From: an uncultured Candidatus Saccharibacteria bacterium
Lineage (GTDB): Bacteria; Patescibacteriota; Saccharimonadia; Saccharimonadales; UBA10212
Direction of reading: 5' to 3'
Assembly: GCA_964460855.1 (NCBI GenBank)
Contig: CAYWQH010000006.1
Location: forward strand, 3,232-67,231
DNA: 64,000 nt
Below, piece by piece: positions 6,803 to 42,804 of this stretch. Under the pieces are notes generated by a model, which was not told where the DNA came from, ran no database searches, and saw nothing but the letters and a program-made list of their open reading frames with translations. Every line of letters starts with the position of its first letter. Position 1 is the first letter of the stretch. The position numbers and the translations under genes are program-made.

Positions 6803-6804
6803 TC

Positions 6805-7956: not shown

Positions 7957-7981
7957 ACGCGGCGAAGGTGGGAGCTTAATT

Positions 7982-10752: not shown

Positions 10753-10777
10753 TTAAGCAAAATGAGAGGGTATAAAA

Positions 10778-14041: not shown

Positions 14042-14042
14042 T

Positions 14043-15932: not shown

Positions 15933-15939
15933 GTAAACA

Positions 15940-17313
15940 ATGAACGAACCAAACCCTTTAAGAAAAATTATAAGATGGGGCATTATAGCTGTCGCAGCAC
16001 TGCTGGTTTTATATCTACTTGTTTATTTCTTAACTAGCGGTACGGTTACGGTAAATACATCAGACGCCTCAAACTCCATTAACGTAAGCGTACTGGGGGC
16101 CGAAGAAAAGCTGGCAAAACCAGTAAAAGCACAGCATAAAACTTTCCGCCTCAAAGCCGGTGATTACTCAGTGGTTGTAAGCAACGGCTCCAACAAATCG
16201 GCCCAAGCTATAAAAGTATCTGCCCTCAAAAAGCAAGAAATTACTTTAAATCCAGCCGCTGCGCTTGCCGTCGAGCCAGTAATCTCCCGCGACGCCGGCA
16301 GTATAAACCCCCGGCAATCTTCATTAAAATTCCTGGACCTTGGCCTGAGTACTGTCATAAATATCGGCAATAATAATAGCTTTACGGCCCCTTATAAGGG
16401 CGTCGAATTAAGCCAAGTTGCCTGGGCAGGCGATACGGGCGCGGCCCGCGACCCGAAAGGCCAATTAATAACGATCAATAATAACAGCGCCAGGCCAACC
16501 GGGATATTTGGCGTTGATGATGTCGGCGCTTCAACCAATGGAAACGCCTATTACACGAAAGGTAAAGATTTATTCCTGTTTAAGCCTACCGGGGACGGCA
16601 CCAAAATATACAGTTCCGACGAACAGGATTTCAGCTTCTATAATGGCCTGAATAAAGTTGTTATAACTGAAGGCGGCGGCAACAAAGGTAAATCTTCTAG
16701 CAACACCGTAAAACTTATCGACCAAACTGGCGCTGTCTCAAAACATTCAGTTGCCCAGGGTTACTTTAGCTGGGCAGGCGAAGATAAAGCGGTGTTCGCC
16801 GGCGGAGCTAATTATTCTCAATTATTAAGCGGCAGCTTGGACCCCCAAGCTAAAATATACGGCCAAAGCCGGGTAGCCGCCTGGCTGGGAGATGACGTTT
16901 ATTACGGGGTAGCTGATGAGCTTTGGAAATATTCAACAACCACTAGCCAAAGCAGCCTTATCGCCAATATGCCTTTCTCTGATAAAATCCTCGAAATCGC
17001 CCCGGAACCAGGCGGAAAATCAATCTATCTAATTACTCAGGCGGGCAGCGGGGATACCGAAATAAAGCGGGTTAATTTAACTGGTAAGGCAGTTAGTGAT
17101 AACTTATCTAAGCTGCAGTCTGTGTTGCCGTTAGAGCTGCCATTCTGCAACGTAAGCCTTTTGAATTACGCGGCTCCGGCTATACTCATGTCGCCGACTT
17201 CGGATATGCCAATTAGTTATTGCCAGAACCAGGCTTTAACGGAGTTCCAGGACCGGGGTATTAACGCAGCCGGTTTGCAATTTACGCCGGAGGAATCTAT
17301 CCCAAGGGAATAA
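15940..17313 (+). CDS. N-terminally membrane-anchored extracytoplasmic protein, last gene of the T4SS operon (possible VirB8/TcpC-like scaffold, 457 aa)
   Basis: TM anchor IIRWGIIAVAALLVLYLLVYFL followed by a beta-rich ectodomain. Assignment rests on position only. Confidence 0.35.
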   Translation: MNEPNPLRKIIRWGIIAVAALLVLYLLVYFLTSGTVTVNTSDASNSINVSVLGAEEKLAKPVKAQHKTFRLKAGDYSVVVSNGSNKSAQAIKVSALKKQEITLNPAAALAVEPVISRDAGSINPRQSSLKFLDLGLSTVINIGNNNSFTAPYKGVELSQVAWAGDTGAARDPKGQLITINNNSARPTGIFGVDDVGASTNGNAYYTKGKDLFLFKPTGDGTKIYSSDEQDFSFYNGLNKVVITEGGGNKGKSSSNTVKLIDQTGAVSKHSVAQGYFSWAGEDKAVFAGGANYSQLLSGSLDPQAKIYGQSRVAAWLGDDVYYGVADELWKYSTTTSQSSLIANMPFSDKILEIAPEPGGKSIYLITQAGSGDTEIKRVNLTGKAVSDNLSKLQSVLPLELPFCNVSLLNYAAPAILMSPTSDMPISYCQNQALTEFQDRGINAAGLQFTPEESIPRE

Positions 17314-23665: not shown

Positions 23666-24775
23666 CTACTTTTCGAAACTTTGGTAAACGGCCAGTGTTT
23701 GTTCGGCCATCCGCTGCCAGGAATACTTTTTTACCTGGGTGTGGCCCTTGGCGATCAAGTTATTACGCCGCTTTTTATCGGACAATATTTCGCTAATAGC
23801 CCGGGCCATGTCATCGGCGCTTTTGGGGTCGAAATAATTAGCGGCGTCGCCGTACACTTCGGGCAGGCAAGAAGCCGAGCTGCTGGCTACCGGCGCGCCG
23901 TATACCATAGCTTCCAGGCCGGGCAGGCCAAAGCCTTCGCTAATAGATGGAAACACATAACAGCGGCAGTGTTGGTACAGCCAAGCCAGCTGCTCATCCG
24001 GCACAAAGCCGGTTAGCATAACATTTTGCACCTGTTTTTTAGTGATATAGCCGGCCAGCCGGTCGGAAAAGACGGTTTGCTTACCGACAATCGCTAAAAC
24101 TAAGCCAGGATAACTTTTTTGCAAAATGTCAAACGCACGGACAAGGCAGGGGAGGTTTTTATGGGCCTGGGCGGTGCCAACATACATAATAAAGTCACTT
24201 TTTTGCAAATTTGCAAATGGCTGGATACTAGATGTTTTTACGGCGTCGGCCGCTTCGAGGGTAACGGTTATCCTTGATAGCGGGTAGCGCAGGCGCTGGT
24301 GGATATCGTTTTTAACGAACTGGGTCGGCACGATAATTTTTGGCATTACCCATACATTTAACCGAAGTAAAATTTTAAATCCCCAATGCAGAAATTCAAA
24401 AACCGCCCTGCTCCGTTTGCGGTTGCGGACCCGCAGCTGGGTCAGGTCGTGGACGGTCATAACTTTAGCCCGGCGGTAAAGGATACCGACAACAGGGGTG
24501 TAAACGTCCGGCTGGAAAGTAAAATGGACGACGTCGGCGTTAAGCCGGTTGAGCAACCGGGCTAAACGGAACTGGCTGCCCAAACTGTAACGCTTGTAAT
24601 TAAATACTTGACTAGTAAAGTTTTTAGCCGTTGGACTCCATTGGTCAGCGTCTTCGGGCGGCAATAAAACTACATATTCGTTTTGCTGGTCTATCCGCTG
24701 GAGGTACTCCAGTAGCCTTTCCACGTAGCGGCCGGAACTACTGCTGATAATATGGGCGTCAATTACTATCTTCAT
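23666..24775 (-). CDS. GT4-family glycosyltransferase
   Basis: C-terminal EGFGLPGLEAMVYGAPVASS...(E-x7-E) motif of retaining GT-B enzymes. Confidence 0.7.
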   Translation of the reverse strand: MKIVIDAHIISSSSGRYVERLLEYLQRIDQQNEYVVLLPPEDADQWSPTAKNFTSQVFNYKRYSLGSQFRLARLLNRLNADVVHFTFQPDVYTPVVGILYRRAKVMTVHDLTQLRVRNRKRSRAVFEFLHWGFKILLRLNVWVMPKIIVPTQFVKNDIHQRLRYPLSRITVTLEAADAVKTSSIQPFANLQKSDFIMYVGTAQAHKNLPCLVRAFDILQKSYPGLVLAIVGKQTVFSDRLAGYITKKQVQNVMLTGFVPDEQLAWLYQHCRCYVFPSISEGFGLPGLEAMVYGAPVASSSASCLPEVYGDAANYFDPKSADDMARAISEILSDKKRRNNLIAKGHTQVKKYSWQRMAEQTLAVYQSFEK

Positions 24776-25799
24776 AATGCCTCCAAAACAAAACCCGGGC
24801 CCGCAGTTTACGCAGTTTATGGCGGTCGGGCGGCAAGTCCGGGTATAAAATTCCCCGGATATACCGGTTGGGAACCTTTCGGTGCCGTTGGATGGCTAGG
24901 CGCTCCAATAATTTAGCTGGCAGCAGCAAGCAAAGCACGCCAAAACCTTTGAGCACTGGCCCTAGATTGCCCTTGCGGGCGATGTTAACCATCATTAAAA
25001 AGTAAGCGATTTGAAATTTAATGGCGGCAGGCCACCATAAGCCCAACGGCAAATTTTTAAACCACAACAGCGGTACGTTCTTGACCGTGTGGTAGGCGGT
25101 AAAACCCGGGATCCGGCCGCTGGTTTTACCAATTTGGTGGTAGGCCACGGCTTTGGGCTGGTAGATAATTTTCCAGCCGGCCAACTGGGCCCTGAAGCTT
25201 AAATCGACGTCTTCGTAATAAGCGAAAAACGCCTCGTCGAACAAACCGATTTGTTTAAAAACTTCGGCCCGGTATAAACTGGCGCCGCCCGACGCGCTAA
25301 ACACAAATTCCTGGTGGTCGTATTGGCCGTTATCGGTTAGCCCCCTCCCCCGCGGGAATGCCAGCAGCCAATTGCTGTAAAAGTCGCCGGTAGAATCAAA
25401 CGTGTAGGGCGGTTTGGCGGCGGCTTTTAACAGCTTGCCGGTTACGATGCCCGCTTCGTCGCTGGACTTAAGGGTTTTATACAAATGCTCCAGCCATTGC
25501 TTGTCGGCTTCGGCGTCATTATTAAACAGGGCTACGTATTCGGCGCCGGCATCCAGCGCAAATTTTATGCCGGCATTAACGCCGCCGGCAAAGCCGGTAT
25601 TGCGGCTCAGGATTACCGAGTCAAGCTTATCACCGTATTTGTTTATTAAGCCTACCGAGCCGTCTGTGCTGCCGTTATCGACTATTACCAGGCGGCACGG
25701 CTGGCTTTGGGCCAGGACCGAATCTATGGCCGCCGCTAAATCGCGCTCGCCATTCCAATTGGGAATCACACAGTAAACTAAAGGTGTTGGGCTTTTCAT
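24759..25799 (-). CDS. GT2-family glycosyltransferase (rhamnosyltransferase-like)
   Basis: N-terminal VIPNWNGERDL...VIVDNGSTDGS...NNDAEAD (DxD) GT-A fold. Confidence 0.7.
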   Translation of the reverse strand: MKSPTPLVYCVIPNWNGERDLAAAIDSVLAQSQPCRLVIVDNGSTDGSVGLINKYGDKLDSVILSRNTGFAGGVNAGIKFALDAGAEYVALFNNDAEADKQWLEHLYKTLKSSDEAGIVTGKLLKAAAKPPYTFDSTGDFYSNWLLAFPRGRGLTDNGQYDHQEFVFSASGGASLYRAEVFKQIGLFDEAFFAYYEDVDLSFRAQLAGWKIIYQPKAVAYHQIGKTSGRIPGFTAYHTVKNVPLLWFKNLPLGLWWPAAIKFQIAYFLMMVNIARKGNLGPVLKGFGVLCLLLPAKLLERLAIQRHRKVPNRYIRGILYPDLPPDRHKLRKLRARVLFWRHYEDSN

Positions 25800-25837
25800 A
25801 AACAGATAAAACCATTGTATAATGAAACCTTAATAGC

Positions 25838-26641
25838 ATGCTAAAAACAACGTTTTCCAAACAAAACCGGGCGTTGCTGGGTGAGCTGGTGCGCACCGAC
25901 TTTAAGCTCCGTTACCAAGGCTCTTTATTAGGCTATGCCTGGTCGCTCCTCAAGCCTTTAATGATGTTTTTAATTTTATACGTAGTATTTGTCAGGATTA
26001 TTCCAATTGGCAAAGGCGTGCCGCACTACCCCGCGTATTTGCTGCTAGGCATAGTTTTATGGAACTTTTTTAATGAGATGACCGTCCAGAGCCTTAATTC
26101 GGTCGTAGCCCGCGGCGAACTAATCCGGAAAATAAAAATTCCACGCTGGACAATCGTTGTGGCCAGTAGCTTAATAGCGCTGATTAACCTGGCCCTAAAC
26201 CTGCTTATAATTGCGATTTTTATGATAATAAACCACGTTACGGTTAACTTCGCCGACCTGTATTTTCCAATTATCGTATTGCAGCTGTATATTTTTTCGC
26301 TGGGCGTGTCGTTATTTTTGGCGGCGTTTTACGTTAAATTCAGGGACGTTAGCTACATATGGGACGTAGTTTTACAGGGCTTGTTTTACCTATCGGCAAT
26401 TATTTATCCCCTTTCAATAATTACTAACCCGGATTACCAAAAAATCCTGCTGCTTAATCCGATTACCAACGCCATCCAAGACGCGCGCTACGTTTTAATT
26501 TCGCCGCAAACGCTTACCCTGCATACTTTAATGCCCGGGCATTGGATCCAGGCCGTGCCGTATTTAATAATGCTGCTGTCGATAATTATTGGCGCCGCGT
26601 ATTTCCGCAGCCAGTCAAAGTTTTTCGCCGAAAACGTTTAG
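25838..26641 (+). CDS. ABC-2 type polysaccharide export permease (Wzm/TagG-like)
   Basis: 267 aa with six TM helices and an ABC-2 family pattern. TATAAT at 25818-25823 lies about 14 nt upstream of the ATG. Confidence 0.7.
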   Translation: MLKTTFSKQNRALLGELVRTDFKLRYQGSLLGYAWSLLKPLMMFLILYVVFVRIIPIGKGVPHYPAYLLLGIVLWNFFNEMTVQSLNSVVARGELIRKIKIPRWTIVVASSLIALINLALNLLIIAIFMIINHVTVNFADLYFPIIVLQLYIFSLGVSLFLAAFYVKFRDVSYIWDVVLQGLFYLSAIIYPLSIITNPDYQKILLLNPITNAIQDARYVLISPQTLTLHTLMPGHWIQAVPYLIMLLSIIIGAAYFRSQSKFFAENV

Positions 26642-26644
26642 CCG

Positions 26645-28597
26645 CTATTTCGGATTAATTTTACCGCGCAGCCGTTGGATTTTACTGGCCAGCTTCCAGG
26701 CATTGGTGCTCTTGATTTGTTCTAATTGCCCCTGGAGTTCGCCCAATTCTTGCAAATGGGTTTCCAGCGCGGACTGCAAATGTTTGAAGTGAGCCTGCAG
26801 CGTTTCGTAAGAATCAACCACATTATCGGGCAATTCTTTATCGGCAATTTCCGGTTGCGGGTACAAGGTCATTTTTTTTGATTTGCCTAATACGTATTTC
26901 TGAAAACTATATTCAGCCTCAAGCACATTTTTTAAAGGCTTTAAGTAATCCTCATATTTTTGGTAGAACCATAATGGAATAATAACGTCGTCCGATATTT
27001 TAATGGCTGGGTTATCGGGCCCGGTTGTAGCCCTAACTGCCTGGCTGTTGCGGGCAAAAAAGTACATCATCGACCGGCCTACTATGTATTTTTTAGGCAC
27101 TGCAAAATTAAAAACCCATTCGTAATCTATTAACGATTTGCCTTTTTTGCCGACTATGATGTTGTCGAAATTAATATCAATGATTGCCGGCAAAATACAA
27201 TCCTGGGAAGTTTTATAGGCCGGCCCGAAAATTTCGGCGTACCCCTTTTGGGAGGCCGGTATTACGGTCTTCGACGGCAAGCTGTCGATAATGCTTAAAT
27301 AACTATCAATTACTTCGGTGAAGGCTTGTTTATTGCTGGCTATCAGATAATCCGTTAGTAAATTTTGCATGGTCGGCCCGGCAATGAAATCAAACTTGAG
27401 GTTGCCGTCGGCGGTTTGTTTAACCGGACATATATTTACCAAAGGACTGCTAACAGATTTTTTAAGCAGGCTGTAATTGGCCAATATATTCGCAATGTGG
27501 CCTTTTGCCACGCTGGTTAAGGGTGACTTAATTACGTGCTGAGTGTAACCCTGGCCATATATTTTAGTAATTAATCGGAACGGCCCGCTGCGGCTGATGG
27601 CGCTCCTGGCGAATACCGGCTGTGCCGGTGCCTTGGTTTTGGCGGGGCTGGCAATGACTAAAAACGAATTGGCCACGCTGCCAAACATTTCATTATTGGC
27701 AAAACTGCGGACAACTAATTGCTCGCGCATTATTTGGGCCCGCGGCTGGTCGGGGGTCGGCGAAGGGTATAAGTCGCTTGGAATGTTTGGCGTGTGCACG
27801 CCCGGTAAGTATTTTTCCGAGTAAACGGCGGCCGGCAGTTTGTAGTCTGGCAGCGGGAAGTAAAAATCGGCCTGTCCGTAGCCGGCGCCATCCAGTAAAT
27901 TTGATAACTCGGCCCGGCCAAATGTACGGACGCCGTGATAATGCGGATAACCTTCCACACCTTCTAAGTAACGCTGCGTATGGTCTTCTTTGGCGCCGGA
28001 CAAATACTTTAGGCCTAACTTGTTCTCGATAGCCAAAACCAGCTTGCCGTTAGCGCTAGTAAATTTACGTAGTTGTTCGGCGAAAACACGGAACGGATCT
28101 TTGCCTTCCACAAACATGCCGGCATATTCCAGCACGCCGACGCATACTACATAGTCAAAGCGTTCTTGGGTGAATTGCTGCAAGTTATCGATATTTCCTA
28201 TAACGATTTCCAGGTTTGTTAAATGGCTGTGCCGGTAGGCGTTAATTGACGCCCTGCGCGCCGAAAGCTCTACGGCAACTACCCGTTTGGCCTTTGAAGC
28301 CAGCAAACCGGTCAGCGCTCCGCAGCCGGCGCCAATTTCCAAAACAGTGCTGCCCGGCGGAAAATCCATCCAATTTAATAAGTTTTGGCGGACCTTGGAC
28401 AAATGGTAGGTTGTTGGCCAATCGGCAGCCGGGGTAAGCAGCTCGCTGCCATCACTGCCCGGGTTGTTTTTAAAATAATTTAAGAGCTTATCTTCTATCG
28501 GGCCGTCGCTGTATTGTTGCTTGGAGGCAATATTTAAATCGGTGATTTTTACCTTGCCGATCAGTTGGGGTGTAATTGGTTTTGCTGCTGAAGCCAT
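26645..28597 (-). CDS. WbdD-like glycan chain terminator: SAM methyltransferase, kinase-like domain and C-terminal coiled coil (650 aa)
   Basis: Class I MTase motif VLEIGAGCGALTGLLA; mid region with a kinase-like catalytic loop (FDNIIVGKKGKSLIDYEWVF); C-terminal heptad-repeat helix (LQSALETHLQELGELQGQLEQIKSTNAWKLASKIQRLRGK). Confidence 0.5.
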   Translation of the reverse strand: MASAAKPITPQLIGKVKITDLNIASKQQYSDGPIEDKLLNYFKNNPGSDGSELLTPAADWPTTYHLSKVRQNLLNWMDFPPGSTVLEIGAGCGALTGLLASKAKRVVAVELSARRASINAYRHSHLTNLEIVIGNIDNLQQFTQERFDYVVCVGVLEYAGMFVEGKDPFRVFAEQLRKFTSANGKLVLAIENKLGLKYLSGAKEDHTQRYLEGVEGYPHYHGVRTFGRAELSNLLDGAGYGQADFYFPLPDYKLPAAVYSEKYLPGVHTPNIPSDLYPSPTPDQPRAQIMREQLVVRSFANNEMFGSVANSFLVIASPAKTKAPAQPVFARSAISRSGPFRLITKIYGQGYTQHVIKSPLTSVAKGHIANILANYSLLKKSVSSPLVNICPVKQTADGNLKFDFIAGPTMQNLLTDYLIASNKQAFTEVIDSYLSIIDSLPSKTVIPASQKGYAEIFGPAYKTSQDCILPAIIDINFDNIIVGKKGKSLIDYEWVFNFAVPKKYIVGRSMMYFFARNSQAVRATTGPDNPAIKISDDVIIPLWFYQKYEDYLKPLKNVLEAEYSFQKYVLGKSKKMTLYPQPEIADKELPDNVVDSYETLQAHFKHLQSALETHLQELGELQGQLEQIKSTNAWKLASKIQRLRGKINPK

Positions 28598-28652
28598 TTC
28601 AAAAAAATTGATTTAAGGAAACTGTAGCACGTTCTTGTAAAATAGTATAAGT

Positions 28653-29903
28653 ATGCAAAACACGGACGAAGCGGCGCCAGTTATTTCGGTGCATGGCGTT
28701 TATAAAAGCTTCCAGCTGCCCCACCAAAAAAGTAACTCCCTTAAAGGGGCGCTATTGAACTTTCGCCAGCTTAAGCAAACTTACGAGAAGCAATCGGTGT
28801 TAAAAGACATTTCTTTCGAAATCCGCAAAGGCGAATTTTTTGGCATAGTAGGGCGCAACGGCAGTGGCAAAAGTACCTTGCTTAAGCTTTTAGCCGGCAT
28901 ATATTACCCCAATAAAGGCGCTGTACAAGTAAACGGCAAACTGACGCCGTTTATTGAGCTGGGCGTAGGTTTTAACCCCGAACTGACCGGCCGCGAAAAT
29001 GTTTTTTTAAACGGCGCTTTGCTGGGCTTTACCAGGAAAGAAATGGCCCTTAAATACCAGTCGATAGTCGATTTTGCCGAACTGGAACGATTTATGGACC
29101 AGAAACTCAAAAACTATTCATCGGGCATGCAAGTCAGGCTGGCCTTTTCGATAGCCATCCAAACCGGTTCGGAAATTTTATTGTTTGACGAAGTTTTAGC
29201 CGTAGGCGACCTCGACTTCCAAAAGAAGTGCTACACGTACTTCCACGATATGAAACGCAGCGGCCAGACAATCGTATTGGTAACCCATGATATGGCGGCA
29301 GTCCGGCGGTTTTGTACGCGGTGCGCTTTAATAGACCAGGGTAAAATCGTAAGTATTGGCGAGCCGGAAGACATAGCCTACTTATACGAGACGATTAATT
29401 TGCGGGCTTCGGAAGTCAGGCTGGACGAAGCCAATAAAGTTATCAAGCAAAAACGGCAAGGCACTTACGAAGCTGTTATTGATTCCGTGGAAACTTACAA
29501 CCCGCATACCGGTAATACGCAAAATACGTTTACCAACCAGGAAAAAATAGGCGTGCGGATAACTTATTCGGCCAAATCCGATATAGAAAATGCTGCCGTC
29601 GGGTTTATATTCCAAAACCAGGATGATTTAACCGTTTTTGCCACCAACAACATCACCCAAGAAGTAAAAATACACGAGCTGCCTGCCGGCTCGAAAATGT
29701 CCATCGAAGCTGAAATCGATAATGTTTTTACCGATGGCGAATACACCATAACTACTTCCATTGAGAATAAAGAGCTGGAGAAGATTTACGACCGCATCGA
29801 GTATGCCCATCGGTTTATGGTTGGCGGCCAAAAACTGTCCCATGCTTTGGCGCACCCGCACCATCAGATGAAGGTAAGCTACGGCCATACCCATCATGAA
29901 TAA
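28653..29903 (+). CDS. Polysaccharide ABC exporter ATP-binding protein with a C-terminal substrate-binding domain (Wzt/TagH-like)
   Basis: Walker A GRNGSGKST, signature YSSGMQVRLAFS, Walker B ILLFDEVLAVGD, plus a ~150-aa extra C-terminal domain. Confidence 0.75.
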   Translation: MQNTDEAAPVISVHGVYKSFQLPHQKSNSLKGALLNFRQLKQTYEKQSVLKDISFEIRKGEFFGIVGRNGSGKSTLLKLLAGIYYPNKGAVQVNGKLTPFIELGVGFNPELTGRENVFLNGALLGFTRKEMALKYQSIVDFAELERFMDQKLKNYSSGMQVRLAFSIAIQTGSEILLFDEVLAVGDLDFQKKCYTYFHDMKRSGQTIVLVTHDMAAVRRFCTRCALIDQGKIVSIGEPEDIAYLYETINLRASEVRLDEANKVIKQKRQGTYEAVIDSVETYNPHTGNTQNTFTNQEKIGVRITYSAKSDIENAAVGFIFQNQDDLTVFATNNITQEVKIHELPAGSKMSIEAEIDNVFTDGEYTITTSIENKELEKIYDRIEYAHRFMVGGQKLSHALAHPHHQMKVSYGHTHHE

Positions 29904-31587
29904 TAATTCGTTCGGATTCAGGGTCTTCAAAAAGTTGGCCAGGCCGACCAAGCCGGTTCTGCGGTCCGCCAGAAAAGCCTATAAAGAATATAAAAAAGCC
30001 GCCAAAATCAGGGAATACGACGGCTGGGCCAGCCAGAACGAAAACGAGTGCTTCGTTTTTGCCGATTTAGCCGCTAACCGGCTGTTTAGCGTTATAGTGC
30101 CGGTTTTTAACACCCACCAGACTCATCTGTTAAAGATGGTTTACTCGGTAATAAACCAGCATTACCAAAACTGGGAGCTGGTTTTAGTAAACGCTTCGAC
30201 TGATCCCGAACGGATCGCTGCCGTAGACGCCTGCGCCCAAATCGATACCCGCATTAAAGTCATTAAGCCGGGCAAAAACCTCGGCATTTCCGGCAATACT
30301 AATTACGGCGTCGGCCATGCCGGCGGCGACTACATAGTGTTTTTTGACCACGACGACATGCTGCACCCCTGCGCCCTGCACGCTTTTGCCGAAGAGATAC
30401 ACCATTCGTCGGCCGAACTGCTTTATTCGGACGAAGATAAAATTACACACGACGGCAGTTTGTTTTTTGACCCGCACTTTAAGCCCCGCTGGTCGCCGGA
30501 CCTGCTAAACAATGTAAACTACATCAACCACTTAACGGCCATTAAGGCCGAATTTGTAAAACAAGCCGGCGGCCTGGACCCGGCCCATGACGGCGCCCAG
30601 GATTACGATTTGCTGCTGAGAGTTATCGATAAATGCCAGCCTAAAATCAAGCACGTGCCCCACGTTTTATACCATTGGCGGGCGGCCAATACTTCGACTG
30701 CACAAGATATATCCAATAAAACATACATTTTTAAAGCCGGCGAGTCGGCCATTGGCAGCCATTTGCATCGGATTGGCGCGAAGGCGAGGGTTAAAGCCAT
30801 AAACGGCCGGCCTGGTTTTTACCGGGTCGCCTATCATGACGAGCCGGATACCAGCCTGGTAATCGGGCCGGTTTCGCCAAACATGCAGCGGGTGTGCGCC
30901 GGCTGGCTGCAGGATTTGCTCAAAAAAGCCGGCCCCCAAATTAAAGAACTGGTGATCGGAGATTGGTACAAGCCTTTCGCTAACGCCGAACACGGCTTTG
31001 AACTTCACTTGGTTGGCAAGGATAATTACTGGCCGGCGGCGGCCGCCAAAGCTAAAGGCGAAGTGGTTATGTGCATCCAGCAAGCGGTAATGCCAAGCAG
31101 CGAAGCAGATGTAAGGGAACTGGCGGCGGTAGCGATACAGCCGGGCTGCCTGGCCTGCGCGCCAATGGTACTCGATGCCCAGCGGGCAATTGCCGATAGC
31201 GGCCTGGTGGCCAGCAGCCAGGGCTTGCAACCACTATTTAGGGGCTACAAGGCCGGTGACGGCTCCGTTTTTGGCAGTACCGAATGGGTGCGCAACATAG
31301 ACGCGCTAAGCGGCGGTATTTTTTGCGCCAAAGCCGAAGTGTTTAAAAAGCTAACCGAAAGCGCCACGCATAAAGGTAAACTAACAGCTGAAAACTTCTT
31401 AAAGCTAAAAGAGCATATGCCGGGCAATATTGTAATTTGGAGCCACGTAAACTTTGAGCTGGACGGGGAGCTGGTGCCTAAATCTTCGGACGATACATTC
31501 TTTAACCCGCAACTGGGCCAAGCGTCATTTGAAATTAATATCGCGGCTAATTCATGGGGGCACGCTTATGAGCGCTCCGAATCATAA
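29896..31587 (+). CDS. Multidomain GT2-family glycosyltransferase (563 aa)
   Basis: GT-A domain VIVPVFNTHQTHLLKMVYSVINQHYQNWELVLVNAST...FFDHDDMLHP (DxD/DD). Confidence 0.65.
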   Translation: MNNNSFGFRVFKKLARPTKPVLRSARKAYKEYKKAAKIREYDGWASQNENECFVFADLAANRLFSVIVPVFNTHQTHLLKMVYSVINQHYQNWELVLVNASTDPERIAAVDACAQIDTRIKVIKPGKNLGISGNTNYGVGHAGGDYIVFFDHDDMLHPCALHAFAEEIHHSSAELLYSDEDKITHDGSLFFDPHFKPRWSPDLLNNVNYINHLTAIKAEFVKQAGGLDPAHDGAQDYDLLLRVIDKCQPKIKHVPHVLYHWRAANTSTAQDISNKTYIFKAGESAIGSHLHRIGAKARVKAINGRPGFYRVAYHDEPDTSLVIGPVSPNMQRVCAGWLQDLLKKAGPQIKELVIGDWYKPFANAEHGFELHLVGKDNYWPAAAAKAKGEVVMCIQQAVMPSSEADVRELAAVAIQPGCLACAPMVLDAQRAIADSGLVASSQGLQPLFRGYKAGDGSVFGSTEWVRNIDALSGGIFCAKAEVFKKLTESATHKGKLTAENFLKLKEHMPGNIVIWSHVNFELDGELVPKSSDDTFFNPQLGQASFEINIAANSWGHAYERSES

Positions 31588-32554
31588 AATCGCCTACATT
31601 ATTATTGGCTATAATAACCGCGACCTGATTGACGAGTGTTTTGAATCAATAGAAGCCCAAACTTTTAACCGCCATACAATTATTTTTGTCGACAATAATT
31701 CGGCGGATGATTCGGTCGGGCATATTAACCAGCGCTACCCCGGCGTAAAAATTTTAGCGCCCGGCTTTAACAGCGGCTTTGCCAAAGGTAATAATTTTGG
31801 CATTGATGAAGCTTTGGCCGACCCTGAAATAGACTACGTGGCTTTAATAAATACCGACGCCCGCCTGGACAGCCGGTGGGCTGAAAAAATCTTGGATTTT
31901 GCCGAACTAAAACCAAAAGGCGCCTTATTCCAGGGCACTACCATGGATTATTACGACCATCAAATTATTGATTCGACACACATTTTCGTGGCCCGCAACG
32001 GCCAAGGCACCCAAGGCAACTGGCGGTTCTTTTACCAAAGCGAATTCGGGCCCAAAAAAGTTTTTGGCGTTAATGCCGCCGCTTGCATGGTGTCGCGAAA
32101 ATTCATAGAAAGCCAGCCATTCGGCCGGCAGTTGTTTGATGAGCGGATGTTTATGTATTTGGAAGATGTCGATTTAGCGGCCCGGGCCACAGTTATGGGT
32201 TGGGATAATTATTTAGTGCCCTCTGCCCGCGCTTACCATATGGGCTCGGCCAGCTCCGGCAAAAACCCCGGCTTTTCGTTATATATGACGTTTCGAAATA
32301 ATTGCGGAATGATTTATAAAAATTTTCCTTGGAGAATAATATGGCGTATGACGCCGGGCTTAATTCGGGGGGATATTGATACGGTTAAAGCCTTGCGCCG
32401 CCAAGGCAAAAAAGCCGCCGCCCGAAAAGTAATCAAGGGCCGGCTCGTAGGACTATGCTACTTGCCTTTTTATATTGCTAAGCGCCGGAAGATGCGGCGG
32501 GCTGGCAAAATCGACACGGAATACCTTTGGCAGTTAATGCTAAAGGGCTACTAG
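31568..32554 (+). CDS. GT2-family glycosyltransferase
   Basis: MSAPNHKIAYIIIGYNNRDLIDECFESIEAQTF...FVDNNSADDS...LINTDARLD. The in-frame ORF opens at 31454, but the conserved N-terminus begins at Met 31568. Confidence 0.65.
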   Translation: MSAPNHKIAYIIIGYNNRDLIDECFESIEAQTFNRHTIIFVDNNSADDSVGHINQRYPGVKILAPGFNSGFAKGNNFGIDEALADPEIDYVALINTDARLDSRWAEKILDFAELKPKGALFQGTTMDYYDHQIIDSTHIFVARNGQGTQGNWRFFYQSEFGPKKVFGVNAAACMVSRKFIESQPFGRQLFDERMFMYLEDVDLAARATVMGWDNYLVPSARAYHMGSASSGKNPGFSLYMTFRNNCGMIYKNFPWRIIWRMTPGLIRGDIDTVKALRRQGKKAAARKVIKGRLVGLCYLPFYIAKRRKMRRAGKIDTEYLWQLMLKGY

Positions 32555-32556
32555 TT

Positions 32557-34329
32557 TTATTCGGCCGGGTCAAAGCTGCCGATATTGGTAACGATATCCT
32601 GAAAACCGATTGCCTGGTTTAGCGCCCGGTTAAACATGTGGGTTTCTACGCTATTATTCGCGCCATTGTACAGAGCGTAAACAATCTGGCTATAGCCGCG
32701 GCCCAAAAAGTCGCCGGCCAGGAATGTACCCGTATTTTGGCTGACACTAGTAAGATCTGTTGGAACGTCATAGAAGCCGGTAGCTTTGGTAAGCGATTGG
32801 TTGAACATGTGCACTTCGGTTTTGCCGCCGGCGCCGCTATAAAGTACGTAAGCCAGCTGGTCATAGCCGCGGCCCAAAAAGTCGCCGGCCACAAACGTTC
32901 CGGTTGCCGCTGTAACGCCTGTCAGGTCTGTGGAAACGTCGTAATAGCCTATTGCTTTAGTCAGGCTGGGGTCAAATAAATGCACTTCGACATGGCCGCC
33001 GGCGCCGCTGTACAGGATTAACGCCAGCTGGTCGCTGCCCTGTCCCAAAAAGTCGCCGGCCACAAAAATGCCGTTAGTGGCAGTAATGCCCGTAAGATCA
33101 GTAGCTACATCATAATATCCAACAAAAGATTTAAAGTCCGGGCTCATGCGGTGCACTTCGACATGGCCGCCGGCGCCGCTGTACAGAATGTAATTCAGGG
33201 CATTTTGGTGGTCTATTTTGGCCCGGCCGGGTACAAACGTACCAAGGCTGCCGTCCGTAGCCCGCATGGCAGTGGCCATATGGGCCGCCCAAGACTGGAA
33301 GCCGGAATTATCAAGATGGATTTCGGCGCAAGTTGAGCCGGTATTGTTCTGCTTAGTAAAGGCCAATTTATCGGGTCCGGTGTTACCGTATGACAATAAT
33401 TTTGACCCGGACGTTGCGCCGGTTACATTCGCTACGCCGAAGCATGGTGTATTAGGGTCGCCGAAATAGCTGGCAAATATATTATAGAAATTCTGGTTGC
33501 CGTGGAAGTGCGGCGTGTACCAATACAGGGCAGCCGTAGCGCCGGTTCCCATTAAAGTACTTACACCATCAATAGTAGTATAGCCGTCGTAAAAGGTATC
33601 GTTGGCGTCGCTGGGGCAGCGTTTGTGGAAGCCGGCCGTCATCGGCCCGCCGTAGCAGGTGTGCAAATCGTCAGAATTATCCCAGCTGCCGCTAATTACC
33701 GCCCAATTAATATTGCCGAGCGAGCGTTGCTGGCCGAATTTAAACAACCAGGCCGCTCGGATTATTTGCTGCGAAAAACCGGCTTTTTGGGCGGTGTTGA
33801 CGCAAGTCGGCCCGACGGTAGACTGGACGACGCCGTTGCGGCGGTAAAGGCTTATGCCCGAATAGTTATAGCGCGTGCCGCTGTCCGGGCAGCCATAACC
33901 CACCGCGGCGGCGTATTTGTGGTTATTGTCGTCACTTGGCAAGCAGTAGGTTGAGCTGAACCGGCCGGTAACCAGGCTTTGTTCTTTTTCGAGCGTAACT
34001 ACCAGCACCTGCGGGTTTAAACCGTAGGCCTGGGCGGCGTCGTATATTGCTTTGCCGGCTGTAACGTAGCCGCCATACGTATAGCCACCGGACGGTGAGT
34101 AGCCACTGGGGTCTATAGCCTGGAAACCGCTGTTCGGGCTGATACAGCTGTTGGCAAAAGTGTTTAAAAAAGCATCTATCTGCGCGGCCGAAATACTATT
34201 AGTATTACTAAAAGCGCTGTCGCTGATAATGTAGTTGGAATTAAAAGCGGCGCGGGCCAGGCCGATAGGCGCCAGGCTGGCTAAAACTACGGACGAAGTA
34301 TATAAAGCCAAAGCTGCCAGTTTTTTCAT
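32557..34329 (-). CDS. Secreted protein with four C-terminal FG-GAP-like beta-propeller repeats (590 aa)
   Basis: Signal peptide and four ~45-aa repeats LYSGAGGHVEVH...GYYDV.TDLTG.TA..G.FVAGDFLG.G.DQLA. Confidence 0.5.
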   Translation of the reverse strand: MKKLAALALYTSSVVLASLAPIGLARAAFNSNYIISDSAFSNTNSISAAQIDAFLNTFANSCISPNSGFQAIDPSGYSPSGGYTYGGYVTAGKAIYDAAQAYGLNPQVLVVTLEKEQSLVTGRFSSTYCLPSDDNNHKYAAAVGYGCPDSGTRYNYSGISLYRRNGVVQSTVGPTCVNTAQKAGFSQQIIRAAWLFKFGQQRSLGNINWAVISGSWDNSDDLHTCYGGPMTAGFHKRCPSDANDTFYDGYTTIDGVSTLMGTGATAALYWYTPHFHGNQNFYNIFASYFGDPNTPCFGVANVTGATSGSKLLSYGNTGPDKLAFTKQNNTGSTCAEIHLDNSGFQSWAAHMATAMRATDGSLGTFVPGRAKIDHQNALNYILYSGAGGHVEVHRMSPDFKSFVGYYDVATDLTGITATNGIFVAGDFLGQGSDQLALILYSGAGGHVEVHLFDPSLTKAIGYYDVSTDLTGVTAATGTFVAGDFLGRGYDQLAYVLYSGAGGKTEVHMFNQSLTKATGFYDVPTDLTSVSQNTGTFLAGDFLGRGYSQIVYALYNGANNSVETHMFNRALNQAIGFQDIVTNIGSFDPAE

Positions 34330-35046: not shown

Positions 35047-37047
35047 TTAATACTGCAGTTGGTAAATATAAAATGTCCGGGACGGATAATTATACTGATT
35101 AACCAGCTTAAGGCAATTGTCGTTTATGGGCTGGGAAGTTAAGATATAGCGCACATTATTGTCTTTCATAAACCCGCTGCACGGTTCGCTTATAACTTGA
35201 AAATGGTCGGCACCGATTAGCTTTAGCTGGGTGCCGGTATTAATGTTAGGATCGCGGTCGAAATTGAATTCAACATGCGCGTAACGGTTATATAAATCTT
35301 GCTGCTGGCCATTATCTATGGGCCGCCAAATACCAAATTGCGGGTAAGTATATAGGCCCGATACCGACGGCGCGCCGTTTAAAATTGCGAAGTTTTCCAG
35401 ATATAAGCTTTCGGTCGCCCACCGCCCCGGCTGCTGTTTGTTTAACTGCTGGATCTCCTTTGATAAATCCGTTTGGTTAATAGCCGATACGTTCCTATAT
35501 AACGGGTGGACACCTATCGACATAAACACCCCGAAAGCCAACAATCCGGCAGCGGCTAACTCAAATTTTTTGCGCAGCAGTAAATAAAAAATTACCGGCA
35601 CTGGAATGGAAAAAAGCAACACTCTCGCGTTACCGATAAACTCCGGAAAACGGTGCCTAGTTACCAGGCCGGTGAACAGCTCGACCGCGAATACCACTAA
35701 TGCAAGCAGTAATGCTATTTTGCCTGAAAATACCTGCTTTTTATGGGCTTGCAGCCGCCTCATAAATAACACCACCAGCATTAAATTCAGGAGGCCCAAG
35801 CCAATAACCAACCGTTTTTGCGGTACCTTATCGAGCAAAAATAGTTTGAACAAAGTATTGAAATGCGGAACAAACAGCCGCACCAGTAAGGCCACGAACA
35901 GCAGACTGACCGTTGCCAATGGCCAATCCAGCCGCCGCCAAGAAAAGCGGCCTCGCTGCCGGGCAGATTTGATCATTAAATATATGGCAGGCAACAGCAA
36001 AAACGGCAGTAAATAAACGAAGTTAGCGGCTTCACTTTGGTTGCTGATCCCTTGCGAGATAAGTTGGTAATGCAGGGCTTTGCCGGTAAACTGCAACTGA
36101 AAATCCAAATTGCCGCTAAAAAAATGTATGGGGTCAAAGCCGCCGCTGGCAATAACCCGCTTACCCGGATAAACAGTGTTCTGTATGGCATGGACGGCCG
36201 CCGCGCGGGTATGTATAAATAAAGCCGTAACCAAGCCGGTGATTATCACCGAAACTAATAACATTCCCATTTTCCGGTAAAATTGCGGTCGGTCCGCCTT
36301 AGTTTGTTCCAGCCAGTGCTGGACCAGGTAGCCAACGCAGAAAGCCGCCAAGGCCAGCCCGGTGGCAATTTGAAACGGCGGGTAAAGCACCAATACATAG
36401 CAAATAAGCAAATATGTTATTACGCCAGCAACCAAAAGCTGGCGGAGCAAGCTCTTTTGCTTTAATAAATAAATAAATAACGCTGCAATAAATAACGGGT
36501 AATATAATGAACCCAATGTTACGAACTGGTACCACCATTGGGTGAAAGCGCTGGCCAGTAAACTTAGCGATAGCAAAGCAGCTAGTAAGCGCCGCCCCGG
36601 CAGCAAAGCTAAGATAAAGAAGTAAGCACTGATTACCAGCAGCGCGCCAATAACCCACCACTTAAACGCGAAGGCATTTTCGAACGGCAAAACAAAGAAA
36701 GCCCAATTATGCGGCCGGAATAATTCGCTCCAGTCTTTGTTGGGCACGTCCAACGACACCGACATATCCTCGCCCCGGCCGATATTTTTATTAACCGTTT
36801 GGTAATTATCGTTGGACTGGGCAATGGTCATTTCGGTATTGACCAGCCATTCGTCGGAGCGGATTGTGCGCGGCTTGTTTATTAAGAGGTTACTGTCGTG
36901 GGTGGGCCCGTAAAAGAAGTCATGGTAGACCCCAATGGATGAGCCGCTGATTTTAAAAGCCGTTAATAATAAAACCACCGCCATTACGACAGCCGGGAAA
37001 AACCAAATGCCGTGGTAAAAACCGCTTAAACCCCGCCGCCAATTCAT
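35047..37047 (-). CDS. Large polytopic membrane protein, GT-C-like glycosyltransferase candidate (666 aa)
   Basis: Twelve or more TM helices with large extracytoplasmic loops. Adjacent to a polyprenyl-phosphate GT2 and GtrA-like proteins. Confidence 0.4.
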   Translation of the reverse strand: MNWRRGLSGFYHGIWFFPAVVMAVVLLLTAFKISGSSIGVYHDFFYGPTHDSNLLINKPRTIRSDEWLVNTEMTIAQSNDNYQTVNKNIGRGEDMSVSLDVPNKDWSELFRPHNWAFFVLPFENAFAFKWWVIGALLVISAYFFILALLPGRRLLAALLSLSLLASAFTQWWYQFVTLGSLYYPLFIAALFIYLLKQKSLLRQLLVAGVITYLLICYVLVLYPPFQIATGLALAAFCVGYLVQHWLEQTKADRPQFYRKMGMLLVSVIITGLVTALFIHTRAAAVHAIQNTVYPGKRVIASGGFDPIHFFSGNLDFQLQFTGKALHYQLISQGISNQSEAANFVYLLPFLLLPAIYLMIKSARQRGRFSWRRLDWPLATVSLLFVALLVRLFVPHFNTLFKLFLLDKVPQKRLVIGLGLLNLMLVVLFMRRLQAHKKQVFSGKIALLLALVVFAVELFTGLVTRHRFPEFIGNARVLLFSIPVPVIFYLLLRKKFELAAAGLLAFGVFMSIGVHPLYRNVSAINQTDLSKEIQQLNKQQPGRWATESLYLENFAILNGAPSVSGLYTYPQFGIWRPIDNGQQQDLYNRYAHVEFNFDRDPNINTGTQLKLIGADHFQVISEPCSGFMKDNNVRYILTSQPINDNCLKLVNQYNYPSRTFYIYQLQY

Positions 37048-38155: not shown

Positions 38156-38524
38156 TTATTTAGCCAGCACGAAAACCAGGCCCAGCATCACCAGGCCGGC
38201 ACCAACCAAATTGTATGCCGATAGTTTTTCGTGGAAAATAATGGCCGCTAGAGCGGTTGAAAAAATTATTGCCAGTGCCGTCATGGTAACCTGCACCGAA
38301 AAGAATTTATTTTTGGACAGCAAAACGAAATAAATGCCGGTGGCTATAACGTAAATAATGCCGCCGGCCCAGATACGCGGGCTGGTAATTAAATTGTTAA
38401 GTATTTTGCCGGCCGAGCCTTCCATCAAATGGTGCTGCTTGATGGCGGTACCCCAAATGGCTTGGGCCGTAACCAGCAAAGCCGACAGCAGCGGAATCAG
38501 TAATAAATTGATGGGGTTGCTCAT
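38156..38524 (-). CDS. EamA/SMR-like 4-TM small transporter (candidate polyprenyl-phosphate-sugar flippase subunit)
   Basis: 122 aa with four TM helices (ArnE/ArnF-like size and topology). Confidence 0.4.
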   Translation of the reverse strand: MSNPINLLLIPLLSALLVTAQAIWGTAIKQHHLMEGSAGKILNNLITSPRIWAGGIIYVIATGIYFVLLSKNKFFSVQVTMTALAIIFSTALAAIIFHEKLSAYNLVGAGLVMLGLVFVLAK

Positions 38525-38542: not shown

Positions 38543-39520
38543 TTACGGCAAGAAGAATTCGCTCATTGGCCTGGCATTTTTGTCGTCTGCTTGCATGGAA
38601 GGCAGGCCCCAGGCGGTTTCGATAGTTTTAAGCAGCGACATATGGTCGTAGCGGTTGGCCGAGCTATAACCTTTTTTAACTTTGGAGCCGACCATAATTA
38701 ACGGGATGTTATTGGTTGATTCGTGCTCTTCGGATTCGTCCCAGGTAATAACTAGTAATGACACGCTGTTATGAAAAGCCGGTGAGTCCAGGATGGTCGA
38801 AACTTCTTTAGCCAGCCACTGGTCGCCGGTACCGACGCTGCAATTATGCATATTATTGCAGTTGTTGGGCACTATATATACGAAGTTGGGCAAGGTATTG
38901 CTTTTTAGGTCGGTCTCAAACTGGGAGAACGGCACGTCGTTTTTTTGGCAGCGGTCGTGGTTGCTGGCAATGTTTTTGTAATACAGGAACGGGTTGAATT
39001 CGGTGTAATATTCCCCCTCGGGGTTAGGGTCGCATGGTTGTGGCATGCCTTCGATGTAAGCCCGCCAGGTTAGGCGGTTTTTTTCCAGTAAATCCGGCAG
39101 GTTCTTAACATCCAGTTGGCACTTAGGGTCGGTTGGCCCGCAGTTGCCCATTAAACCGGCGTTGGTACCGCTGGTTAGGTGGATATAGTTTGGCAGGCTG
39201 GGGTGGTCGGTGGCGTAGTACTGGGTAGCGTAAGCGTACTGGTCGGCCAGGGTATTAATGTACGTAGCTTCAGGATTATCTACTATTCGCCGCCCGCTTT
39301 CGTTTTCTTCCATGATCAAGAATATATGTTCGAAATTGGGTACGTAAGAGGCCGGCGTTTTTGGTACGTTTTCGGGCTGGCGGGCCGAGGCCACTATAAA
39401 ATAAAACAAAACCATCAGGAAAACGGCGCTTAGCGTACCCACCAAAAAAGATATTTTCTGGATGCGCGAAAATTTTAGGTGCTTTTTAGGCTTGTGCGCC
39501 CTTACGGGGAGGTGGTTCAT
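38543..39520 (-). CDS. Phosphoesterase-family protein (phospholipase C / acid phosphatase AcpA-like)
   Basis: IFLIMEENESGRRIV and TDHPSLPNYIHLTSG resemble the ENRSFD and PS.PN motifs of the phosphoesterase family. N-terminal TM anchor. Confidence 0.45.
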   Translation of the reverse strand: MNHLPVRAHKPKKHLKFSRIQKISFLVGTLSAVFLMVLFYFIVASARQPENVPKTPASYVPNFEHIFLIMEENESGRRIVDNPEATYINTLADQYAYATQYYATDHPSLPNYIHLTSGTNAGLMGNCGPTDPKCQLDVKNLPDLLEKNRLTWRAYIEGMPQPCDPNPEGEYYTEFNPFLYYKNIASNHDRCQKNDVPFSQFETDLKSNTLPNFVYIVPNNCNNMHNCSVGTGDQWLAKEVSTILDSPAFHNSVSLLVITWDESEEHESTNNIPLIMVGSKVKKGYSSANRYDHMSLLKTIETAWGLPSMQADDKNARPMSEFFLP

Positions 39521-41237: not shown

Positions 41238-41239
41238 TT

Positions 41240-42804
<1,565 letters not shown>

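Follow-up and report, generated by a model that had tools for sequence, protein, structure and literature searches.

The analysed stretch of DNA, referred to here as the window, comprises 64,000 nt of contig CAYWQH010000006.1 (assembly GCA_964460855.1), and all positions given below are numbered from its start. Three adjacent genes of a glycan export module lie in it. The gene wzm (25838-26641, plus strand) encodes an ABC-2 type polysaccharide export permease of 267 aa. The second gene (26645-28597, minus strand) encodes a protein of 650 aa, predicted to be a methyltransferase-kinase-coiled-coil chain terminator of the type found at the N-terminus of ORF6 of Klebsiella pneumoniae O7, hereafter ORF6(O7). 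The third, wzt (28653-29903, plus strand), encodes an ABC nucleotide-binding subunit of 416 aa with a C-terminal carbohydrate-binding domain. A preliminary description of this DNA had placed the three open reading frames (ORFs) at the same positions and had omitted the minus strand of the middle one. The 650-aa gene is convergent with wzm, the stop codons being separated by 3 nt, and divergent from wzt, with a spacer of 55 nt. The three genes had the same order and orientation in L081, an independent Logan assembly which covers this sequence, so the layout is not an assembly artefact. A promoter and terminator scan of 25600-29000 gave nothing above shuffled sequence except a promoter-like site (10/12) immediately ahead of wzm, and the Rfam scan of the window resulted in no match.

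The glycan locus adjoins dnaA, dnaN, yidC and jag, as determined with Pfam. The named relatives of the DnaA protein, with 75-76% identity, were all from Candidatus Saccharimonadales or Saccharibacteria, and the window is on this sequence evidence placed in Saccharimonadales. The envelope of Saccharibacteria is of the single-membrane, Gram-positive type. Since the host is a member of Saccharibacteria, the earlier labelling of the genome as monoderm is reasonable, its basis being taxonomy and not the window itself.

The permease Wzm was recognised by PF01061 (ABC2_membrane) at 1.3e-19 and has about six transmembrane segments according to its hydropathy. The NCBIfam match of Wzm to a galactan Wzm/RfbD-like model was below the model cut-off. 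In Wzt, the nucleotide-binding domain (NBD, approximately 28653-29417) matched the Pfam model ABC_tran at 6.6e-23, and residues 266-398 (approximately 29448-29846) matched PF14524, Wzt_C, at 1.1e-22 with a score of 80.9 bits against a cut-off of 30.4. In the PDB sequence search, residues 15-395 of Wzt aligned with the solved full-length Wzt of Aquifex (8dku), its carbohydrate-binding domain (CBD) included, at 7e-71. The C-terminal domain alone matched the CBD structures 6o14 and 8dky of Aquifex at about 3e-4 to 8e-4. Judged from these matches, Wzm and Wzt are an ABC-2 permease paired with an ABC NBD subunit which bears a carbohydrate-binding module (CBM). The preliminary description had proposed an ABC-transporter-dependent glycan export module and an extra C-terminal domain on Wzt, and both proposals were borne out by the PF01061, ABC_tran, Wzt_C and 8dku matches.

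The 650-aa protein was modelled at full length with AlphaFold2 (AF2) using the family alignment, and the model reached a predicted local distance difference test (pLDDT) value of 92.9 and a predicted template-modelling (pTM) score of 0.88. In the alignment of 53 homologues (A1), conservation runs along the whole length of the protein. Residues 1-320 (27638-28597, minus strand) were determined with Pfam to comprise a class I S-adenosylmethionine (SAM) methyltransferase domain followed by a family-specific extension. Methyltransf_11/12/25 and related models cover residues from about 70 to 240, and the extension carries the IENKLGLKY, EDH, PDYKLP and NSF motifs. Of the residues in the predicted SAM site, Y29, G91, G93 and Y158 were invariant in A1, and Y64 and E110 were conserved in at least 90% of the sequences. 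With Pfam and NCBIfam, nothing beyond the class I methyltransferase was recognised on the 650-aa protein. The database annotation of this gene is also just "class I SAM-dependent methyltransferase".

Residues 321-580 (26858-27637, minus strand) form a protein-kinase-like domain of the aminoglycoside phosphotransferase (APH) type, which was detected from the AF2 and Foldseek results. The preliminary description had proposed profile searches for the methyltransferase, kinase-like and Wzt_C domains; the first and the last were found in this way, and the kinase-like domain has no Pfam or NCBIfam model. The middle domain alone resulted in zero PDB sequence matches at E<=10. As the Foldseek matches of the full-length model were mostly methyltransferases, residues 318-592 were modelled alone, with a pLDDT of 94.5 and a pTM of 0.91. 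All 50 matches listed for this model in the PDB were protein-kinase-like folds. The top match was APH(3')-Ia at 6e-5 with a template-modelling (TM) score of 0.45-0.5, and the further matches included macrolide phosphotransferases (Mph), YtaA, CotS-type, ethanolamine and methylthioribose kinases, Rio2 and PAK1. In the AF2 model, residues 327-500 are arranged as three strands, a long helix, two strands, and two paired strands with D474/N479 and D491 on either side. This modelled order of secondary structure matches the topology of a kinase N-lobe and catalytic core.

The core motifs of the kinase-like domain are D474-I-N-F-D-N479 and I-D491-Y-E-W. By sequence, the D-x4-N motif can be assigned as the catalytic loop, the Asp 12 residues further on as the equivalent of the DFG Asp, and the Lys to a beta-strand ahead of the long helix. 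The corresponding codons on the minus strand were verified by translation and are located at 27527-27529 (K357), 27176-27178 (D474), 27161-27163 (N479) and 27125-27127 (D491). In A1, D474, N479, D491 and W494 were invariant and K357, R336 and E493 nearly so. A set of 79 sequences, consisting of the window protein and 78 further family members from genome loci, gave a similar result: D474, N479, D491 and E493 were kept in all of the sequences and K357 in 78. Since K357, D474, N479 and D491 are invariant or nearly invariant across 79 sequences from many phyla, the domain is likely to be an active enzyme. The motifs FDNIIV and LIDYEW, quoted in the preliminary description as signs of a kinase-like middle domain, are real and belong to the conserved core. 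Neither of the two results named in that description as fatal to it, a middle domain devoid of kinase catalytic residues and a Wzt extension without a Wzt_C/CBM-like fold, was obtained. An assignment of the domain as an antibiotic-resistance APH was rejected, since it is invariably fused or adjacent to the methyltransferase and to Wzt.

The C-terminal part of the protein is helical. Residues 594-629 (26711-26818, minus strand; translation checked) are a helix in the AF2 model and comprise a coiled coil of five heptads, which is a putative short molecular ruler or oligomerisation helix. Its a/d positions, YFLLL/LLHLI, have a hydrophobic core fraction of 80% compared with 28% in the background. 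With these heptads, the layout proposed earlier (methyltransferase, kinase-like domain, coiled coil) agrees with the Pfam, domain-model and heptad results throughout. The coiled coil is followed by a basic helix of residues 632-647 (26657-26704, minus strand) with a net charge of +5, and a motif resembling I-x-[NS]-[ST]-x-x-W-[KR] ahead of it is common to the close homologues. The amphipathicity of helix 632-647 was not significant in comparison with shuffles (p ~0.17). A putative role of this helix in binding a membrane or a partner is suggested by analogy with the C-terminus of WbdD (PMC11231755).

Variation in length was observed among the close family members (P0052-P0092, from ENA, JGI and Logan metagenome assemblies), which were 660, 667, 674, 681, 695 and 709 aa long. 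The aligned tails of four close homologues differed by whole 7- or 14-residue repeats of the form DKDRHI[DG]NLDK[IM]I in the coiled coil. To judge from the sequences, these differences look like the natural length variation of a molecular ruler.

The closest characterised counterpart of the 650-aa protein was found in K. pneumoniae O7. In vitro, ORF6(O7) adds phosphate and then methyl-phosphate onto O3 of terminal alpha-1,3-rhamnose (Rha) (Kelly et al. 2024, J Biol Chem, PMC11231755). The acceptor products were 3-O-phospho-Rha and 3-O-methylphospho-Rha, the enzyme acts on the non-reducing terminal Rha, and the D441A substitution abolished its kinase activity (PMC11231755). Residues 1-442 of this protein (KpO7) were rebuilt from the supplementary alignment by optical character recognition (OCR), which resulted in a noisy sequence with the replacement of O by Q as the sole edit. 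With BLASTP, the 650-aa protein matched the N-terminus of KpO7 at 3e-42 with 34% identity over 305 aa. The hhalign comparison of the A1 family profile with KpO7 gave a probability of 100 and an E-value of 1.3e-47 over 410 columns, and set FIDAVPQN, which contains D441 of ORF6(O7), on IIDINFDN, which contains D474 of the window protein. The SAM-site residues given for ORF6(O7), Y28, Y66, G91, G93, E112 and Y158 (PMC11231755), correspond to Y29, Y64, G91, G93, E110 and Y158 of the window protein, respectively. Because of the BLASTP and hhalign homology and the SAM-site correspondence, the 650-aa protein is assigned by sequence to the ORF6(O7)-N terminator family. The orthologues of ORF6(O7) given previously were only from alpha- and gamma-proteobacteria and cyanobacteria (PMC11231755).

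In the preliminary description the protein had been compared with WbdD, the chain-length terminator of Escherichia coli O9a. The comparison holds for function and domain layout, yet the protein is not a relative of WbdD, as no sequence similarity to WbdD was detected and the homologue is ORF6(O7)-N instead. Among the PDB matches listed in the single-sequence (phmmer) and family-profile searches there were generic methyltransferases only and no WbdD, and WbdD was also not among the 50 Foldseek matches listed for the kinase-domain model. With the full-length model, the WbdD structures 4azt and 4azs were the only Foldseek matches listed which span both catalytic domains (approximately 511-514 columns). 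Their E-values were 2e-9 to 7e-9, with a TM score of just 0.22-0.32 and a root-mean-square deviation (rmsd) of about 16 A. The kinase of WbdD from E. coli O9a and K. pneumoniae O3 resembles Src and the eukaryotic protein kinases (ePK) (PDB 4azs, 4azt; PMC3482155), and the ORF6(O7) kinase was described by its authors as "quite different" from that of WbdD in sequence and structure (PMC11231755).

The genes for chain synthesis are located in the same region. The end of wzt is overlapped by 8 nt by a gene for a family 2 glycosyltransferase (GT2) of 563 aa (29896-31587, plus strand; PF00535 at 1.9e-21), which is a candidate rhamnan polymerase. The N-terminal module of this GT2 matched module 766-1140 of KpO7 ORF6 in BLASTP at 1e-53 with 35% identity over 305 aa, and the DHDD motif was conserved. 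In ORF6(O7), module 766-1140 is a dTDP-Rha-dependent glycosyltransferase which adds two alpha-1,2-Rha residues (PMC11231755). A second GT2 gene (31454-32554, plus strand; 366 aa as listed; PF00535 at 1.7e-17) showed a weak BLASTP match to module 1141-1414 of ORF6(O7), 4e-11 with 25% identity. From the TTG start listed for the second GT2, the reading frame would share 134 nt (31454-31587) with the gene of the 563-aa GT2, and translation probably begins further on, past 31587. On the other side of the module, a GT4 gene (23666-24775, minus strand) and another GT2 gene (24759-25799, minus strand), both recognised with Pfam, are divergent from wzm and encode candidate adaptor or side-chain glycosyltransferases. 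The genes of dTDP-L-rhamnose synthesis, rmlA, rmlD, rmlC and rmlB, are found at 39517-42798 on the minus strand (PF00483, PF04321, PF00908 and PF16363; E 1e-39 to 1e-77), in agreement with the earlier view of the locus as rhamnose-based. The ORFs, domains, motifs and heptads described above and the rml genes are not chance features.

The genome scan resulted in 570 confirmed relatives of the 650-aa protein, and the locus counts cover the best 80 of these. The nearest relative among the 80 is encoded by a complete Saccharibacteria chromosome of 0.78 Mb (L001). The same chromosome also holds the closest Wzm (54% identical), Wzt NBD (61%), GT2, GT4 and DUF7657 protein, and the GT4 and GT2 beside wzm in the window were 44% and 50% identical to the wzm-adjacent genes of L001, respectively. 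Most of the other loci were from Lachnospiraceae, Blautia, Roseburia, Clostridium, Paenibacillus and Schinkia, with Sulfurovum, Thermodesulfobacteriota, Pirellulales and Moranbacteria as further hosts. A Wzt NBD was encoded near the family gene in 68 loci of the 80; as a rule its reading frame stops immediately upstream of that gene on the same strand. Complete Wzt proteins had a length of 406-488 aa in 61 of 64 cases, and the Pfam scan detected Wzt_C in every one of the 61 Wzt proteins scanned, that of the window included. A homologue of the 563-aa GT2 was located near the terminator in 58 loci, being sometimes fused to it, and RmlA homologues were present in 32.

The family occurs in a fused form, in a form split into methyltransferase and kinase ORFs, and in a form with the kinase joined to GT2 modules, the latter up to 1,880 aa long. 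In many Firmicutes, an ORF for a methyltransferase of approximately 300 aa was accompanied by a separate kinase ORF, or kinase-GT2 fusions of 1,000-1,880 aa were observed (e.g. L004 7995-10391 and L065 7986-13628). A family member of 603 aa (L071 1492-3303) was found on a 6.4-kb contig binned as Methanobrevibacter, which points either to a family member in an archaeon or to a wrongly binned contig. The kinase-like domain alone was represented by at least 1,734 clusters (50% identity) at E<=1e-3 and by 685 at 1e-10. Stand-alone kinase-domain proteins of approximately 330 aa are common among the 1,734 clusters.

Considered together, these results point, with a probability of roughly 0.7, to a polymerase-terminator-exporter system of the ABC-transporter-dependent pathway in Saccharimonadales (TM7), in which a methyl-phosphate cap would be placed on the glycan and read by Wzt_C. 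Of this, the gene content, the domain folds, the conserved catalytic residues, the homology to the O7 enzyme and the tight co-occurrence with Wzt_C were observed, and the cap chemistry, the ruler function, the CBM specificity and the final acceptor are inferred. According to the proposed mechanism, a rhamnose-containing glycan would grow at the cytoplasmic face while attached to a polyprenyl-phosphate carrier. The dTDP-L-Rha would come from the rmlABCD products, and the GT2 encoded at 29896-31587 would lengthen the chain with the neighbouring glycosyltransferases. The 650-aa protein would then halt extension, its APH-like kinase domain (K357, D474, N479, D491) phosphorylating a hydroxyl of the non-reducing terminal sugar. 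We infer that phosphorylation, by the example of K. pneumoniae O7, most probably occurs at O3 of L-Rha, and that the N-terminal SAM methyltransferase subsequently methylates this phosphate to form the methyl-phosphate cap. The five-heptad coiled coil may oligomerise the enzyme and, with the basic C-terminal helix, may hold the catalytic heads at a short fixed distance from the membrane or the polymerase, by which the chain length would be set. Wzt_C is expected to bind capped chains only, which Wzm/Wzt would then export.

The following points weigh against this mechanism. The terminator gene is on the strand opposite to wzm and wzt, and because of that its co-transcription with them cannot be assumed. 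With about 36 residues the coiled coil is very short, and ORF6(O7) has an Ig-like module which the window protein lacks; a ruler role is therefore less well supported here than for WbdD or ORF6. The KpO7 query was OCR-derived and noisy, and it ends at about residue 442, just past D441 and short of the DFG-like D491 region.

Of the alternative explanations, the one which survives best concerns the final acceptor and is rather unlikely, although not to be counted among the improbable ones. It keeps the same pathway and proposes that the capped rhamnan is moved by a Wzy_C enzyme to a surface (S-layer-like) protein or to a lipid and not to peptidoglycan. It touches only the "wall polysaccharide" part of the interpretation and is compatible with the capping-and-export mechanism described above. 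The window does encode features of a peptidoglycan-anchored rhamnose wall polysaccharide of the Rgp/Gac/Epa type, namely rmlABCD, a GT2 homologous to a dTDP-Rha-dependent glycosyltransferase, and Wzm/Wzt. It also encodes, 16-19 kb downstream of the module, a WbaP-type polyprenyl-phosphate glycosylphosphotransferase (PGT) as a candidate initiation enzyme (45973-47409, minus strand; PF02397 at 5.5e-61, TIGR03025 at 4.9e-108, above the cut-off). Beside it lies a gene for a Wzy_C ligase/O-oligosaccharyltransferase-like membrane protein with about 10 transmembrane segments (47469-48863, plus strand; PF04932 at 2.4e-11), a candidate enzyme of the final transfer. This pair equals the WsaP and WsaB combination of the Geobacillus slg cluster (PMC2943079). 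No LCP-family ligase domain was detected among the 40 window ORFs scanned with Pfam, the Wzy_C protein being present instead. Because of this result and of the WbaP-type/Wzy_C pair, the final acceptor of the glycan may be a protein or a lipid. However, the scan covered 40 window ORFs and not all of them, other genes lie between the module and the Wzy_C and PGT genes, which might belong to a distinct Wzy-type pathway, and no S-layer protein was identified.

A plain O-methyl cap is much less probable. In this case the kinase-like domain would have no catalytic role and would act as a scaffold or in substrate binding, and chain termination would depend on methylation alone, as it does with WbdD of E. 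coli O8 or WsaE of Geobacillus. A monoderm case is documented in the Geobacillus S-layer rhamnan with its 2-O-methyl cap (PMC2943079). The near-complete invariance of K357, D474, N479 and D491 in the 79 sequences from many phyla makes such a pseudokinase unlikely, and in ORF6(O7) the homologous domain has kinase activity (PMC11231755).

Slightly weaker still is the explanation that the enzyme decorates internal glycan residues or another envelope molecule with phosphate or methyl-phosphate, without termination, and that the C-terminal domain of Wzt reads another feature. It would fit the separate transcription of the terminator gene from wzm and wzt, and the short coiled coil offers little evidence of a ruler. 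Gram-positive rhamnose wall polysaccharides often bear phosphate-containing decorations, although those described (glycerol-phosphate, teichoic-acid-type) are chemically unlike methyl-phosphate. Such decorations are generally added outside the cell and are not known to depend on a soluble cytoplasmic enzyme. Internal decoration is further made unlikely by the linkage to Wzt_C, since the CBM, a hallmark of cap-dependent export, was present on all 61 Wzt proteins tested beside family members, and the homologue ORF6(O7) acts on the non-reducing terminal Rha (PMC11231755). The weakest explanation, a true terminator of the WbdD(O9a/O3) family with shared ancestry including the Src-like kinase, has the same domain order and the two-domain Foldseek matches 4azt/4azs in its favour and is very improbable in view of their poor superposition, the lack of WbdD among the sequence, profile and kinase-domain matches listed, the closeness of the kinase domain to APH enzymes, and the difference between the two kinases reported by the O7 authors (PMC11231755).

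The mechanism, the enzyme family and the ABC-exported capped rhamnans of monoderms (Geobacillus) are already known, and no new mechanism is revealed by the module. What is new, as far as the sequences indicate, is a predicted methyl-phosphate terminator of the O7 type in Saccharibacteria and the evident abundance of the family in monoderm gut and soil bacteria. The terminator type described in 2024 is thereby extended from proteobacteria and cyanobacteria to Saccharibacteria and many gut Firmicutes, and a gene annotated just as a methyltransferase obtains a precise and testable label. Literature searches on Saccharibacteria rhamnose glycans and glucorhamnan clusters yielded no result relevant to the module, and the Saccharibacteria paper among the results referred to the rhamnose polysaccharide of their host.

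A broader generalisation can be offered tentatively, at somewhat less than even odds. Saccharibacteria, together with numerous monoderms from gut and soil (Lachnospiraceae, Blautia, Paenibacillus, Clostridium, and Moranbacteria of the candidate phyla radiation, CPR), may cap their rhamnose glycans with methyl-phosphate by means of this Pfam-less sugar-kinase family, with its at least 1,734 clusters, and a cap-reading Wzt, the gain and loss of heptads tuning the chain length. If true, monoderms in general, an obligate episymbiont among them, would carry one conserved epitope at the non-reducing end of their surface glycans and pass these through an export checkpoint; up to now both have been documented for enterobacterial O antigens only. 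It is predicted that the rhamnose glycans of Saccharibacteria and gut Firmicutes carrying the family bear a methyl-phosphate cap and that their export depends on it. Since export is predicted to be cap-dependent, the terminator and the CBM of Wzt are candidate control points over the cell surface of the episymbiont.

Several further features were observed in the window. Within the glycan locus, a secreted protein of 590 aa (32557-34329) had no Pfam match and ends in four repeats of about 50 aa, YSGAGGHVEVH...TG.FVAGDFLG.G.DQL, which are FG-GAP-like. A DUF7657/DUF7654 protein with about 12-14 transmembrane segments (35047-37047) has no function in Pfam or NCBIfam, and a DUF7657 gene also adjoins the module in the Saccharibacteria locus L001. 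Together with a protein of 122 aa with about four transmembrane segments (38156-38524) and the GT2 encoded at 24759-25799, the DUF7657 protein could form a three-component system of extracytoplasmic side-chain glycosylation. At 49753-52227 on the minus strand, genes for a TylF-type O-methyltransferase, an LPG_synthase_TM-family membrane protein and a PAP2 phosphatase are arranged in a row and followed by a GT4 gene (52458-53657); these may be a second envelope-modification unit. A Gram-positive-type block resembling type IV secretion systems was located at 4049-17313, next to dnaN/dnaA and upstream of the origin region. It includes the genes of a PrgI-family protein (6805-7956), a VirB4/TraG-like ATPase (8839-10752), an M23 peptidase protein of 1087 aa (10778-14041) and an SLT transglycosylase protein (14043-15932).

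In comparison with known systems, the exporter resembles Wzm/Wzt of Aquifex aeolicus (8dku, 7k2t, 6o14), with the same NBD, C-terminal beta-sandwich CBD and ABC-2 permease pairing. The CBD sequences are divergent, with an E-value of about 3e-4 for the domain alone, and unlike in A. aeolicus, wzm and wzt of the window are parted by the inverted terminator gene. ORF6 of K. pneumoniae O7 shares a homologous methyltransferase with its SAM-site residues, followed by an unannotated APH/AmiN-like kinase domain and a coiled coil, and its gene likewise belongs to a rhamnose-glycan cluster which also encodes Wzm and a Wzt with a CBM. The terminator stands alone with 650 aa in the window, whereas in O7 it is the N-terminus of a protein of 1414 aa with two GT2 modules. 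An Ig-like CBM lies between the kinase and the coiled coil of ORF6(O7) and is absent from the window protein, for which the AF2 secondary structure shows no such domain from residue 570 to residue 594 and whose last residue is 650. Some of the ORF6(O7) orthologues stop after the coiled coil (PMC11231755), and therefore the Ig-like CBM and the fused GT2 modules are variable and not defining features. The coiled coil of the window protein, about 36 residues, is much shorter than that of ORF6(O7). The host of the window is a monoderm member of Saccharibacteria. The product cannot be a lipopolysaccharide O antigen.

WbdD of the O9a/O3 type has the same domain order of methyltransferase, kinase and coiled coil, and makes a methyl-phosphate cap which the CBM of Wzt must recognise before export; the same scheme is predicted for the window protein. 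In contrast to the Src/ePK-like kinase of WbdD, the kinase domain of the window protein is APH-like, and no sequence similarity was detected between them. The C-terminal coiled-coil region of WbdD has approximately 250 residues, forms a trimer and recruits WbdA, whereas the coiled coil of the window protein has five heptads. The monoderm precedent is the slg cluster of Geobacillus stearothermophilus NRS 2004/3a, in which an L-rhamnan grows on a lipid carrier and receives a non-reducing-end cap, with Wzm/Wzt as its exporter (PMC2943079). As in the window, that cluster includes a WbaP-type initiator (WsaP) and a Wzy_C transferase (WsaB). Its 2-O-methyl cap is made by the methyltransferase domain of WsaE, which is fused to two rhamnosyltransferase domains and has no kinase, whereas the window protein carries a kinase-fold domain.

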